64,000 nucleotides of DNA from a bacterium (GCA_034439755.1 JAWXAZ010000140.1:13789-77788), one strand, 5' to 3'; positions 2,931-45,520 are shown, counted from the first letter of the stretch. The notes: generated from the sequence alone by a model not told the origin. Numbers and translations are program-made.

Positions 2931-3686
2931 CTATTTTCTATTTCCCCAACTATAACTCACATAAAATCCCGCGAGCAATTGATCGTAATTTGTCTTTGCC
3001 ATTATTGGAATGCCGTTCATAAATGCATCTACAGTAACTCCTGCCTCTAGGCACCTAATTTCGTCGCTATACTGCCCCCACTCTACCTGAAAGCCAGCTC
3101 TTCCAAATCCACCTACCTGCAATTTAGTTTCGCTTAATCCCTTAGTAAAAGTAGAATTTCCATAAATTTTATAGATATCAGAATGCTTTTGAGGGTCGTA
3201 TCTTTCGCTTACCAAATAACCTTCACTAGGCGAGTTATCGAACTGATAATAAACCTCAATATAAACGGGCTTTAAAAAAGCAGTAGTAACGCCCACATCA
3301 TAAACAAAATTGATCCCTATGGCATTTTTATAAGGTCTGTCTGTAATAGTAATGGTTTGTCCAAAGCTATTTCGCATTAGATAAACCACGTTCAATCTAC
3401 CAAAAGTATATTGCGTTTGGTTCTCTGTAAAACCTTGCCTTCTATCCTCCTTTGGGTGCCTAATTCTACTAATGTCGAGCTCCCAATGATTTTGTTCCTT
3501 CCCCGTTTTATGCCAACCCAAGCGGTAAAAAGCGCCGCGCGATTTAAACGAGTTTAAGCCAATACCATACAAGTTACTTTTGGTATACATAAGCTGCGGC
3601 TGCGTAATAGGCGCATTTTGCCCGAGAACTAATTTTGTAGTTCCAATAAGGAGGCAAATAAAAAAGTAATGTCTGAACCTATTCAA
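2931..3686 (-). CDS. hypothetical secreted protein, probably an outer-membrane beta-barrel
   Basis: 251 aa. Has a signal peptide and alternating aromatic/polar beta-strand-like pattern, ending in YSWGNRK. Lies 1 nt upstream of lipA on the same strand. No family recognised. Confidence 0.4.
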
Positions 3687-12614: not shown

Positions 12615-12677
12615 ACAAGCCTAGCTTCCATATAATACATATATAAAAAAGTATATTTGTAGATAATTGAATTGAGA

Positions 12678-13754
12678 ATGAATCTAAAATTTGGCCTGAT
12701 AGGGCATCCTTTGCACAACCAGTTTTCGGTGAATTACTTTACGCGCAATTTTGAGGAGGCGGGATTAGCATATAGCTATGAGAATTTTGATTTGGCTACA
12801 GAGGAGGAATTGAGGGCATTTATTTCAGCGCTCAAAACTTTAGGGGATCCATATTTGGGTGGGCACAATTTAAATGTACCTAATAACGATGGAATAACTT
12901 TACAAGGGAGCGAAATTGGCGGTACTAATTTGGAGGGGCAAAGTTTGCACGGGCAAAGCTTGCACGAGCAACGTTTGCATGGGCATAGTTTGGAGGAGCA
13001 ACATTTGGAGGGGCAAAGTTTGGAGGAGCAACGTTTGGAGGGGCAACGTTTGCACGGGCAACGTTTGCATGAGCAAAGTTTGGAGGAGCAAAGTTTGGAG
13101 GGGCATAGTTTGGAGGGGCATAGTTTGGAGGGGCAAAGTTTGGGTGGCTCTAATTTTGTTGGAGCTAGTTTTGGCGGATTAAATGTGACGAAGCCTTATA
13201 AGGAAAAGGTACTTTCAATGATGGATGAATTATCCATAGAGGCTGAGGTTTGTGGGGCGGTTAATTGCATTCAATTTTTGCCAAATGGCGTTTTAAAAGG
13301 GCATAATACCGACGTATATGGATTTAATATTTCCTTGCAACAATTCTTAGGTTTGGACCGAAAAAAAAGGGCTTTAATTTTTGGAAATGGCGGTGCGGCA
13401 AAAGCGGTTTGTTATGTTTTAAATGAACTATCCATACCTTATCATTTGGTTACGCGGAGCTTGATAAAACAAGAGAATGAGTTAAATTATTCTGAGCTTA
13501 CCTTAGCATTAATTAAGCAGCATGAGTTGTTAATTAATGCAAGTTCGGTGGGCATGTACCCTAATGAAGATCAATGTTTGCCTATTCCATTTGAAGGCAT
13601 TGGTAAGGCACATTTTTGTTATGATTTAATTTATTTACCAGAGAAAACCACGTTTCTATTGGAGGCAGAAAAGCGCGGTGCTAGGGTTAAAAATGGCTTA
13701 GACATGTTGCATTTACAGGCCGATGAGGCATATAGAATTTGGATGGATGCTTAA
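12678..13754 (+). CDS. aroE: shikimate dehydrogenase carrying a ~110-aa pentapeptide-repeat insertion
   Basis: AroE motifs FGLIGHPL, GGLNVTKPYK, HNTDVYG and the NADP loop GNGGAAKAV are all in one frame. ATG at 12678 is preferred over TTG at 12672. The repeat insertion lies between the N-terminal segment and the NVTKPYK motif. Confidence 0.85.
   Translation: MNLKFGLIGHPLHNQFSVNYFTRNFEEAGLAYSYENFDLATEEELRAFISALKTLGDPYLGGHNLNVPNNDGITLQGSEIGGTNLEGQSLHGQSLHEQRLHGHSLEEQHLEGQSLEEQRLEGQRLHGQRLHEQSLEEQSLEGHSLEGHSLEGQSLGGSNFVGASFGGLNVTKPYKEKVLSMMDELSIEAEVCGAVNCIQFLPNGVLKGHNTDVYGFNISLQQFLGLDRKKRALIFGNGGAAKAVCYVLNELSIPYHLVTRSLIKQENELNYSELTLALIKQHELLINASSVGMYPNEDQCLPIPFEGIGKAHFCYDLIYLPEKTTFLLEAEKRGARVKNGLDMLHLQADEAYRIWMDA
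12858..13187 (+). repeat. in-frame 15-bp tandem repeat (22 units; 14 near-identical core units at 12933-13142)
   Basis: The core unit consensus is GAGGGGCAAAGTTTG, encoding (E/H)(G/E)Q(S/R)L. Five degenerate units lie upstream and three downstream, and the last is the native GGLNV. Direct reading of the sequence. Confidence 0.95.
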
Positions 13755-43346: not shown

Positions 43347-43457
43347 TGCTGGTTTCGAAGGTAAAAAATAATGAAAGAAAATAAACCTTAAAAGATACTT
43401 AGATAAAAGATACTTAGATAAAAGAGGGAAATTGTAATTAAAAAAGTCCCTATTGCC

Positions 43458-44039
43458 CTATGGCAATTTTTCTTGCGCATAGGCAATGGCCACTTCCTCT
43501 AGCTCGGCATACCATGCAGCGCCAAACCTGCTAATTAGCGGATCTTTAAGGAATTTAAAAACGGGCACTTTTTCTTGTTTTCCGAGTGTGCAAGCCGCTT
43601 TGCAAATATCCCAGCGGTGGTAATTTAACGCATCATAATCGCCCACTTTAATAACCCTAATTGGGTATAAATAACAAGAACTGGGCTTTCTAATTTCCGA
43701 TTTGCCATCTAGAAAACTTTTTTCAATGCCGCAACTAAGCAAACCATGCTCATCTCTTTTAACAAAATTACATTCGCCAGTAGGAAGACAAGTGGTAACC
43801 CATTCGCCATCTTCATCAATTTCAAACCCACCACGTTTTTCAATGTCCTTCAAAGAATCTTCACTTAGGTATGGTTTTATGAGGGGAAAAGCCTTTTCAA
43901 TTCTCGATTTTTCTTCTAAGGTAACAGGAGCGCCGGCATCGCCTTCAATGCAGCAAGATCCTTTACAGGCGCTGAGGTTGCAGATAAACTCTTGGTCGAA
44001 TAAGTCTTCTGAGACCAGCGTATTTCCAATAATAATCAT
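43458..44039 (-). CDS. DUF3109-family cysteine-rich protein
   Basis: 193 aa. FICNLSACKGSCCIEGDAGAP cluster plus further conserved Cys (CLPTGECNF, CYLYP, CKAAC). Confidence 0.6.
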   Translation of the reverse strand: MIIIGNTLVSEDLFDQEFICNLSACKGSCCIEGDAGAPVTLEEKSRIEKAFPLIKPYLSEDSLKDIEKRGGFEIDEDGEWVTTCLPTGECNFVKRDEHGLLSCGIEKSFLDGKSEIRKPSSCYLYPIRVIKVGDYDALNYHRWDICKAACTLGKQEKVPVFKFLKDPLISRFGAAWYAELEEVAIAYAQEKLP

Positions 44040-44350
44040 ATAGTTAGTAGCGCAAAATTATTTTTTAGTAGCGTAAAGTCATATAGTTAGAACTGTAAAA
44101 TTCATGTATTTAGTAGCGCAAAATTATTTTTTAGTAGCGTAAAGTCATAATGTTAGAACGGTAAATTCATGTATTTAGTAGCGTAAAATTATTTTTTAGT
44201 AGCGTAAAGTCATATAGTTAGAACTGTAAAATCATGTATTTAGTAGCGCAAAATTATTTTTCAGTAGCGTAAAGTCATATAGTTAGAACTGTAAAATCAT
44301 GTATTTAGTAGCGCAAAATTATTTTTTAGTAGCGTAAAGTCATATAGTTA
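44036..44350. repeat. intergenic tandem repeat, ~65-bp unit x ~4.8 copies
   Basis: Units start at 44044, 44110, 44175, 44240 and 44305 (period 66/65/65/65). The array is bounded at both ends by TCATATAGTTA. Each unit contains TAGTAGCGYAAA twice. Confidence 0.95.
44053..44060 (-). promoter_or_regulatory. candidate -7 promoter box (TAATTTTG on the minus strand) for the DUF3109 gene, re-copied in the upstream repeat units
   Basis: The reverse complement of CAAAATTA is TAATTTTG, which matches TAnnTTTG. It lies 13 nt upstream of the ATG at 44039. The same box recurs in units 2, 4 and 5, and unit 3 has TAATTTTA. Confidence 0.35.
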
Positions 44351-44449
44351 AGCAAGGAATTTGGTGCATTTTTGTGGTGGCAAATTAGCGATTTTGAGTC
44401 AACATTCCTTTATTCTTTTATCCTTCAATAAGCGTATCTTTGAGGCGAA

Positions 44450-45520
44450 ATGACAAATATGGTCAAAACAGATATTCGATCACTTAACTTGGATCAGATT
44501 AAAGATGCCTTTATTGCCAATGGCGACAAGGCATTTAGGGGATTGCAGGTATATGAATGGCTTTGGAAAAAAGCTTGCACAGATTTTAATCAAATGACCA
44601 ATTTGGGCATTGAAACACGAGAATGGTTACAGCACAATTTTGTGATAAACGACATTGCAACGGTAGACAAGCAAGTGAGCAATGATGGTACTATTAAGAG
44701 TGGTTTTAGGTTGCATGATGGCCATTTGGTAGAAGGCGTTTTAATTCCGGCAGACGAAAGAATGACGGCTTGTGTTTCTTCACAAGTTGGTTGCAGTTTA
44801 ACCTGTAAATTTTGTGCAACGGGTAAGATGGAGCGCGAACGTAATTTAACTTCAGGTGAGATTTACGACCAGGTTGTGCAGATTAGAAACTGGGCCATGC
44901 ATCATTTCCAGAAGCCTCTTACAAACATTGTTTTTATGGGAATGGGTGAACCCTTGCTTAATTATGCAAATGTATTAAAGGCCATCGATAAAATTACATC
45001 TCAAGATGGGTTGGGAATGGCCGCAGACCGCATTACAGTTTCTACCGCAGGAATAGCTAAAATGATACGGAAACTAGCCGACGATGAAGTGCGGTTTAAT
45101 TTGGCCTTAAGTTTACATGCTGCCAATGATGCGAAACGCAATATGATAATGCCCATTAACGAAAGCAATAGTTTGAAAGAAGTTGGAGAAGCCTTAAAAT
45201 ATTTTCATTTAAAAACAAAAAAGCGGGTAACCTTTGAATACATTGCCTTTAAAAATTTTAACGAAAGCATTCAGGATGCAAAAGAGTTGCTAGCCTTTTG
45301 CAAAAAGTTTCCGGCTAAAGTAAATGTGATTGAATATAATTCCACTGGTGATGGTCAATTTGAAAAAGCCGATTCCGATAAAATTGACCAGTTTTGCGCT
45401 TACTTAGAAAAAAATGGCGTGGTGGCAAAGGTTAGGCGCAGTAGAGGCAAAGACATTGACGCCGCATGCGGACAGTTAGCCAATAAAAAACATGAAGAAG
45501 CCTTGTTTCAAGAAGGTTAA
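44450..45520 (+). CDS. rlmN: 23S rRNA/tRNA adenine-C2 methyltransferase RlmN (radical SAM)
   Basis: 356 aa. Radical-SAM CSLTCKFCATG, MGMGEPL, and the C-terminal DIDAACGQL. Confidence 0.93.
   Translation: MTNMVKTDIRSLNLDQIKDAFIANGDKAFRGLQVYEWLWKKACTDFNQMTNLGIETREWLQHNFVINDIATVDKQVSNDGTIKSGFRLHDGHLVEGVLIPADERMTACVSSQVGCSLTCKFCATGKMERERNLTSGEIYDQVVQIRNWAMHHFQKPLTNIVFMGMGEPLLNYANVLKAIDKITSQDGLGMAADRITVSTAGIAKMIRKLADDEVRFNLALSLHAANDAKRNMIMPINESNSLKEVGEALKYFHLKTKKRVTFEYIAFKNFNESIQDAKELLAFCKKFPAKVNVIEYNSTGDGQFEKADSDKIDQFCAYLEKNGVVAKVRRSRGKDIDAACGQLANKKHEEALFQEG

Follow-up and report, generated by a model that had tools for sequence, protein, structure and literature searches.

A 65-bp tandem array in the divergent DUF3109-rlmN spacer of an uncultured Bacteroidota bacterium, probably a young, lineage-specific minisatellite

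INTRODUCTION

Tandem repeats in bacterial intergenic regions have been described in several forms. Mycobacterial interspersed repetitive units (MIRUs) are intergenic units of 40–100 bp that carry small open reading frames (ORFs) overlapping the start or stop codons of the flanking genes. Other repeats are variable-number tandem repeats (VNTRs), some of which affect expression of an adjacent gene. The VNTR upstream of clbR in the colibactin island of Escherichia coli consists of an 8-bp unit present in 2–20 copies, with an approximately twofold effect on expression (PMC7364221). The 7-bp simple sequence repeat of Haemophilus influenzae hmw1A acts via a long RNA hairpin that is cut by RNase III (PMC12721329). 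Here, we analyze a tandem array of 65-bp units located between a DUF3109 gene and rlmN in a 64,000-nt stretch of DNA (hereafter, the window; GCA_034439755.1 JAWXAZ010000140.1:13789-77788) that belongs to an 83,426-bp metagenome contig of an uncultured Bacteroidota. This array differs from the clbR and hmw1A repeats in its longer unit, the promoter box present in each unit, and the lack of RNA structure.

Promoters of the Bacteroidota require separate consideration. The primary sigma factor of this phylum recognizes a −7 element, TAnnTTTG, refined to TAHHTTTG, at positions −12 to −5 (PMC6847099, PMC9723704), in which the G at −5 is near-invariant; a weak −33 element and AT-rich motifs near −18 and −28 accompany it (PMC6847099). 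These bacteria do without Shine-Dalgarno sequences, and AUG is depleted near their start codons (PMC6847099). In Flavobacterium psychrophilum, the median 5′ untranslated region (UTR) is 24 nt long, and a TAnnTTGY class of variant boxes is present (PMC9723704). DUF3109 is a widespread Cys-rich protein; for its mycobacterial homolog, Rv0495c, a link to redox homeostasis has been reported (bioRxiv 10.1101/2023.08.22.554105).

RESULTS

A tandem array fills most of the DUF3109-rlmN spacer

The DUF3109 and rlmN genes are divergently oriented, with start codons at 44039 on the minus strand and 44450 on the plus strand and a spacer of 410 bp, of which 311 bp belong to the array. Tandem Repeats Finder (TRF) reported the array at 44034–44350 with a period of 65 bp, 4.9 copies, 93% matches, 0% indels, and a score of 569, along with a second row of period 43 and 70% matches. 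A repeat search yielded copy spacings of 66, 65, 65, and 65 bp. Thus, the ~65-bp repeat in the divergent spacer, the two start codons, and the spacer length that were put forward in an earlier note, made from the sequence alone, are all borne out.

We phased the unit boundaries at TCATATAGTTAG and numbered the units 0 to 4 from the DUF3109 side (Table 1). The 11-mer TCATATAGTTA stands at both ends of the array, and its left copy contains the DUF3109 start codon. On the minus strand, TAATTTTG, an exact −7 box, is found in four units, and a G-to-A variant is found in the third, Unit 2, where it results from a C-to-T change in the first 12-mer. The description of each unit as a fresh copy of the start-codon context together with a consensus −7 box was therefore essentially right. 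The 12-mer TAGTAGCGYAAA has 10 matches with at most one mismatch, all within the array (0.59 expected by chance; 0 of 100 shuffles reached 10). The number of copies agrees with the earlier count, but the spacing alternates between 21 and 44–45 bp and not between ~24 and ~41 bp. Because the ten 12-mers and the four −7 boxes are copies by descent, they do not represent independent observations.

No ORF spans the array, and its location between the two ATG codons is non-coding. Head-to-tail units of at least 10 bp with high identity, a non-coding location, and an origin by local duplication, all of which are found here, characterize intergenic minisatellites or VNTRs.

The array is absent from related lineages and postdates their divergence

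The loci of eight related lineages (L003, L004, L006, L007, L075, L076, L077, and L078) were retrieved via their DUF3109 or RlmN proteins. The divergent rlmN-DUF3109 pair is kept in all eight. The spacer is far shorter in each of them than the 410 bp of the window: 127 bp in L003, which shares 93% amino acid identity in DUF3109, 124 bp in L004, 129 bp in L006, 85 bp in L007, 114 bp each in L075, L076, and L077, and 112 bp in L078. Neither the array nor an AGTAGCGYAAA-like motif or the 12-mer was found in any of these eight spacers, so that the difference between lineages is one of presence versus absence. The nearest relatives show at most 93% (DUF3109) and at most 88% (RlmN) amino acid identity; the closest named relative by DUF3109 is “Bacteroidetes bacterium B1(2017)”, with 84%.

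When the array is collapsed to Unit 0, the window aligns end to end with the L003 spacer. L003 contains one TCATATTTTTAAGCGCGTAAAA, followed by TCATGG, and carries a single, different sequence, AAGCGCGTAAA, instead of the 12-mer. The length excess over L003 (410 − 127 = 283 bp) decomposes into a 21-bp internal duplication plus 66, 65, 65, and 65 bp, with one base over. The two genes are 82–83% identical between the window and L003, and identity at third codon positions is 56–64%. Given that the units differ pairwise at only 1–6 of 65 positions, compared with the ~40% third-position divergence from L003, the array is young and postdates the split of the two lineages; judging by these alignments, the amplification appears to have taken place long after the split from the nearest known relative. 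The spacer to the right of the array (44351–44449) shows 85% identity to L003 (78 of 92 aligned positions), which exceeds the identity at third codon positions and so indicates that this repeat-free portion of the spacer is under purifying selection, as promoter DNA would be expected to be.

The unit is itself a degenerate triplet

When the 65-bp unit is compared with itself after cyclic shifting by 22 or 43 bp, 35 of 65 positions agree, a value near the 99.9th percentile of 2,000 shuffles. The unit thus consists of three degenerate sub-repeats of ~22 bp, namely, TCATATAGTTAGAACTGTAAAA, TCATGTATTTAGTAGCGCAAAA, and T-AT-TTTTTAGTAGCGTAAAG. The proto-unit, with TCAT microhomology on both sides, is seen once in L003.

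These observations suggest an origin by replication slippage or unequal exchange acting on the DUF3109 start codon and the DNA immediately upstream of it. Under the scenario suggested by the alignments, an ancestor would have had a single 22-bp proto-unit between TCAT microhomologies; the proto-unit would have slipped to three copies, ~65 bp in total, which then diverged; and the resulting 65-bp block would have been amplified about four further times. The product would be non-coding DNA that is neither a conserved protein-binding element nor an RNA element. A young, higher-order minisatellite specific to this lineage, formed by slippage at the DUF3109 start and without conserved function, is the explanation that we consider probable. 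The array is best filed with the bacterial intergenic VNTRs, as a genuine but ordinary member of that class. Near-perfect tandem copies of 65 bp are prone to recombination and slippage, so that the copy number would be expected to vary.

The array is present in the reads

Proteins identical to those encoded by the flanking genes were found elsewhere only in the Logan assembly of SRR6448212, in which the two genes lie on separate contigs. The first of these contigs (L001) runs to window position 44073, where the last 31-mer to include the unique junction base between ATAGTTAG and TAGCG ends. The second (L002) begins at the first 31-mer that holds the unique A at the junction of TAGTTA with AGCAAGG. 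The two contigs break exactly where a graph with k = 31 must branch, which means that the SRR6448212 reads contain both junctions as well as the branching. The array is real. The count of five copies, as read from one metagenome contig, is less firm, given that the Logan contigs support the junctions and not the unit number.

An assembly artifact could accordingly concern the copy number only: the repeat would be real, and the five copies would reflect the path of the assembler through a cycle in the graph, possibly with a mixture of strains. The metagenomic source of the contig, the failure of the Logan assembly to cross the array, and the cluster of five to six private differences in Unit 2 all fit such an artifact. 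Nevertheless, we find it decidedly unlikely, considering that both unique junctions occur independently in the Logan contigs, with breaks at the expected branch points, and that four distinguishable unit variants stand in a consistent order. Furthermore, de Bruijn graph assemblers usually collapse tandem repeats rather than inflate them.

The array displaced a putative old DUF3109 promoter box and introduced a new one

Scanning for sigma-70-type promoters is uninformative for Bacteroidota. In the window, TAnnTTTG boxes concentrate close to gene starts: within 150 nt upstream of 51 crude gene calls there are 21 boxes, and 14 of these fall 4–33 nt ahead of the start codon. Both strands of the 8,368 intergenic bases together contain 31 such boxes, which translates into a ~12% chance that a box aimed at a given gene occurs in 65 bp.

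The boxes of seven relatives (L003, L004, L006, L007, L075, L077, and L078) were compared with those in the window. Toward DUF3109, all seven have one or two −7-like boxes, one of them located 44–88 nt before the ATG, and in L075, a further box is located 8 nt from the start codon. The window retains the orthologous box, TAATTTGC, which, together with the next eight bases (caccacaa), is identical in L003 and which we infer to be the ancestral DUF3109 promoter. The array lies between this box and the ATG and hence occupies the former 5′ leader of DUF3109, the transcription start at the orthologous box being a prediction from sequence. The TAATTTTG box, by contrast, is absent from L003, indicating that it arose inside the repeat and was then copied; the four copies count as one event, not four.

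Growth of the array would have displaced the conserved DUF3109 box by 283 bp, from ~58 nt to 340 nt before the ATG. In a transcript initiated at the displaced box, each unit would contribute two upstream AUGs to the leader, about nine in all, an unfavorable arrangement in Bacteroidota. Most likely, DUF3109 is now driven by the proximal TAATTTTG box, a new consensus sigma-A box from which transcription is predicted to begin near 44048, giving a leader of ~9 nt, whereas the distal copies would be redundant by-products. A regulatory effect of the array on DUF3109 is plausible; any tuning of DUF3109 expression would probably be a side effect rather than a selected switch.

The rlmN promoter lies outside the array. 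Its −7 box, TATCTTTG, is located at an identical distance of 7 nt from the ATG in L003, L075, L077, L078, and L004; L006 has TATATTTG at 6 nt, and among the seven relatives examined, no such box was found in L007. Given this distance and the −12 to −5 placement of the box, the rlmN mRNA is predicted to have a leader of ~3 nt and to be almost leaderless. Expression of rlmN should be unaffected by the array.

This geometry raises the possibility of a selected, contingency-type locus, in which each unit would add a sigma-A promoter, leader length, or both, and gain or loss of units would tune DUF3109. Four exact TAATTTTG boxes, with an A-rich run upstream, point at the gene, and the proximal one is at a distance from the start that is typical of this genome. 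The array also sits between the orthologous box and the ATG, as do the repeats of clbR (PMC7364221) and hmw1A (PMC12721329), and its near-perfect units are inherently unstable. Against this, the boxes were copied by descent from one that had an appreciable chance of occurring in an intergenic segment of this length, and transcripts from the distal boxes would bear the upstream AUGs that are depleted near starts in Bacteroidetes (PMC6847099). No such device is found at this gene in any of the eight relatives. The known phase-variable promoter repeats use units of 1–9 bp, compared with 65 bp here, and the one-member protein clusters of the flanking genes offer no population comparison. On balance, we regard a selected contingency function as doubtful. 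The more specific proposition, that this is a 65-bp VNTR in which each unit provides a full sigma-A −7 element together with a decoy start context, and hence a promoter-stacking contingency locus, seems to us unlikely. To our knowledge, contingency loci of this type have not been described in Bacteroidota.

The repeated 12-mer does not behave as a protein-binding site

Ten copies of TAGTAGCGYAAA, spaced by 21 bp, or two helical turns, within the unit, could in principle form an array for cooperative binding of a regulator or initiator, the iteron-like role that the earlier note had entertained. Other metagenome-assembled genomes (MAGs) of Bacteroidota also contain loci with 21-bp arrays that share the same 10-mer core and have a higher-order period of 63/64 bp. 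The evidence against binding is more extensive. The motif is absent from the spacers of the eight relatives, with the single, different AAGCGCGTAAA in L003, and outside the array, the window contains nine matches to the 12-mer with two mismatches, compared with ~10 expected. Neither DnaA boxes in the spacer nor a rep gene were seen, and searches for plasmid or phage similarity were negative. The loci that share the 10-mer have unconserved flanks and GC contents from 25 to 72%, and some are coding. Finally, three composition-matched control 10-mers yielded 3, 4, and 4 pairs spaced by 21 bp in viral contigs, compared with 4 for the core itself. A protein-binding array is thus very unlikely.

The relation to other repeats was addressed with the pattern GTAGCGYAAA-N11-GTAGCGYAAA, that is, two cores 21 bp apart. 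The pattern retrieved 17 loci from species-representative genomes and 50 from the Joint Genome Institute (JGI) metagenomes, none of which contained the 65-bp unit, and the unit was not found in 185,579 species-representative genomes, the JGI metagenomes, or the IMG/VR contigs. A dispersed family, raised earlier as a point to be checked, is not seen in these genome, metagenome, and viral collections. The retrieved loci are a mixture of 21-bp tandem repeats, some coding and others not, with the same broad range of GC content, many of them in Bacteroidota MAGs, and the pattern simply samples abundant natural 21-bp tandem duplications.

Several of the MAG contigs of Bacteroidota carry long non-coding 21-bp arrays with GTAGCGYAAA, with up to 23 copies and a 63/64-bp higher-order period (L020, 7130–7624; L054, 1020–1439; L010, 1041–1224; L021, 1–258; L008, 70–223). 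Nine of the 17 genome matches to the pattern come from Bacteroidota, and the control for the core covered viral contigs. A family comprising these five arrays was considered and attributed to chance retrieval, in view of the unconserved flanks, the inconsistent gene contexts, and the equal yield of the controls in viral contigs.

Further element types were considered and rejected. A regulon is not supported, there being no excess of near-matches to the 12-mer elsewhere in the window. For a replication origin or iterons, the spacer has no DnaA box, the window is below chance for near-matches, there is no turn in GC skew, and the neighbors are rlmN and DUF3109. A mobile, phage, or plasmid origin is not indicated by any match, inverted repeat, or copy elsewhere in the collections scanned. 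The absence of inverted repeats and the single locus in the window also disagree with repetitive extragenic palindromic (REP) elements, bacterial interspersed mosaic elements (BIMEs), miniature inverted-repeat transposable elements (MITEs), and Correia-type elements. In a clustered regularly interspaced short palindromic repeat (CRISPR) array, the repeats are separated by unique spacers; here, the sequence between the 12-mers is itself repeated. A MIRU-like dispersed repeat is not compatible with the restriction of the 12-mer to the array within the 64 kb, the unlike mini-ORFs of the units, and the divergent orientation of the flanking genes.

No RNA structure is predicted in the array, and its mini-ORFs are not conserved

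As the array is probably located in a transcribed leader and each unit contains short ATG-initiated ORFs, it could encode a structured small RNA, a riboswitch-like leader, or a leader peptide. Both strands, though, are predicted to fold more weakly than their shuffles, with minimum free energies of −20.1 against a shuffle mean of −26.6 for the minus strand (z = +1.75) and −42.2 against −49.2 for the plus strand (z = +2.10). There are no inverted repeats, and Rfam gave no match at the gathering score or at E ≤ 1. The mini-ORFs, of five to eight codons (MTLRY*, MILQF*, MNLPF*, and MNFTVLTI*), are not conserved between units, and the reading frame is broken across units because 65 is not a multiple of 3. 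The short ORF ATGAATTTTACAGTTCTAACTATATGA, attributed to two successive units in the earlier note, is present in only one; the next unit reads ATGAATTTACCGTTCTAA. These results largely refute the RNA and peptide roles, which we consider hardly credible.

Flanking genes and other repeats near the array

The coordinates of the features discussed above are collected in Table 1. The N-terminus of the DUF3109 protein, MIIIGN, agrees with those of homologs aligned at 98–100% coverage.

Table 1. Features of the DUF3109-rlmN locus (window coordinates)
Feature	Coordinates	Strand	Remarks
DUF3109 gene (PF11307)	43458..44039	-	Left array edge consists of its first two codons
rlmN (RlmN_N + Radical_SAM)	44450..45520	+	Divergent from DUF3109
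Whole tandem array	44036..44350		Truncated 43-bp unit, then four complete units of 65 or 66 bp and a final 11-bp partial copy
Unit 0	44036..44078		43 bp; lacks the 22-bp segment GAACTGTAAAATCATGTATTTA; holds the real DUF3109 start codon (CAT at 44037-44039)
Unit 1	44079..44144		66 bp; one extra T
Unit 2	44145..44209		65 bp; most divergent, 5-6 differences from the other units
Unit 3	44210..44274		65 bp; second 12-mer is CAGTAGCGTAAA
Unit 4	44275..44339		65 bp; identical to the consensus
Terminal partial copy TCATATAGTTA	44340..44350		11-mer; followed by AGCAAGG where the repeat would have GAACTGT
Proximal array -7 box TAATTTTG	44053..44060	-	13 nt before the DUF3109 ATG; A-rich run just upstream
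Distal TAATTTTG copies	44119-44126, 44249-44256, 44314-44321	-	79, 209, and 274 nt from the DUF3109 ATG
Variant box TAATTTTA	44184-44191	-	144 nt from the DUF3109 ATG; A for the near-invariant G at -5
Orthologous (ancestral) DUF3109 -7-like box TAATTTGC	44380..44387	-	TAnnTTGY type; 340 nt from the ATG; 58 nt in L003
rlmN -7 box TATCTTTG	44435..44442	+	7 nt before the rlmN ATG; outside the array

A perfect 15-bp tandem repeat of 2.5 copies (TAAAAGATACTTAGA) is located at 43389–43425, in the spacer just past the DUF3109 stop codon. This spacer is 111 bp long in the window, compared with 32 bp in L004 and 54 bp in L006, and the repeat is a second lineage-specific tandem duplication flanking DUF3109. 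In L007, a pair of small genes (3147–3679), one of which encodes a ParE_toxin domain, is inserted between DUF3109 and a yjeF-like gene.

Elsewhere in the window, a 15-bp tandem repeat of 14.3 copies with the consensus TTTGGAGGGGCAAAG (12929–13143) lies in frame within a plus-strand ORF (12672–13754) that encodes a 360-aa shikimate-dehydrogenase-like protein. The repeat encodes ~70 residues of five-residue repeats (LEGQS, LHGQS, and variants) that divide the Shikimate_dh_N domain into two matched stretches, an unusual insertion for a housekeeping enzyme.

DISCUSSION

The array in the DUF3109-rlmN spacer is lineage-specific and young, lies in the predicted ancestral 5′ leader of DUF3109, and leaves the conserved rlmN box untouched, three features that go beyond what the earlier note contained. 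Of the functions proposed there, the iteron or regulator array, the small RNA, and the leader peptide found no support in the comparison with the relatives or in the folding and frame analyses. We favor a minisatellite that arose by slippage at the DUF3109 start codon, and several considerations weigh against this preference. The preservation of four near-identical units, each with a −7 box and an A-rich run, would fit selection as well. The number of units, taken from a short-read metagenome contig, may be wrong, and part of the differences between units could be strain variants stitched together. The DUF3109 and RlmN protein clusters have one member each, with no occurrence found outside SRR6448212; the organism is therefore known from one sample, and population variation cannot inform neutrality. 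Finally, which box is used for DUF3109 is something we infer from position and consensus.

As a neutral minisatellite and nothing more, the array would be of little importance. If, on the other hand, the unit number varies and tunes DUF3109, the array would represent a promoter VNTR with a long unit, in a phylum whose phase variation is known mainly from DNA inversion, and for a promoter-stacking locus, gain or loss of units would change how many promoters there are and how many upstream AUGs burden the DUF3109 mRNA. The locus provides a clean example of an array that apparently was born from a start-codon-proximal proto-repeat, displaced an old promoter, and created a new one, and it shows why such loci break short-read assemblies.

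Among the known systems, plasmid, phage, or chromosomal iterons share with the array a short core that is directly repeated at intervals of about two helical turns. The initiator gene, DnaA boxes, unwinding element, conservation in relatives, and plasmid or phage similarity are all lacking here. MIRUs resemble the array in unit size, and the edge of the array likewise overlaps an adjacent start codon. MIRUs, however, are dispersed and located within operons, with ORFs in frame for translational coupling, whereas the present unit was found at one locus only in the window and the collections scanned, and its frame is broken. The hmw1A and hmw2A repeats of H. influenzae share the position of the tract between the promoter and the start codon, in the transcribed leader (a location predicted for the present array), and differ in that no RNA structure is predicted here. 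The clbR-clbB VNTR, which together with the hmw1A repeats is the nearest analog in function, is located in a divergent intergenic region within the 5′ UTR of one gene. It is devoid of a promoter element, and its polymorphism and effect have been demonstrated, whereas the present array is known from sequence alone. The closest match is with the bacterial intergenic minisatellites or VNTRs employed in multiple-locus VNTR analysis (MLVA) typing, which likewise consist of head-to-tail units of tens of base pairs with high identity, are non-coding, arise from local sequence by slippage, and can be present in one lineage and absent from a close relative. That class is named for copy-number polymorphism, whereas presence or absence is what is seen here, and the present unit is further distinguished by its three-part, ~22-bp substructure.

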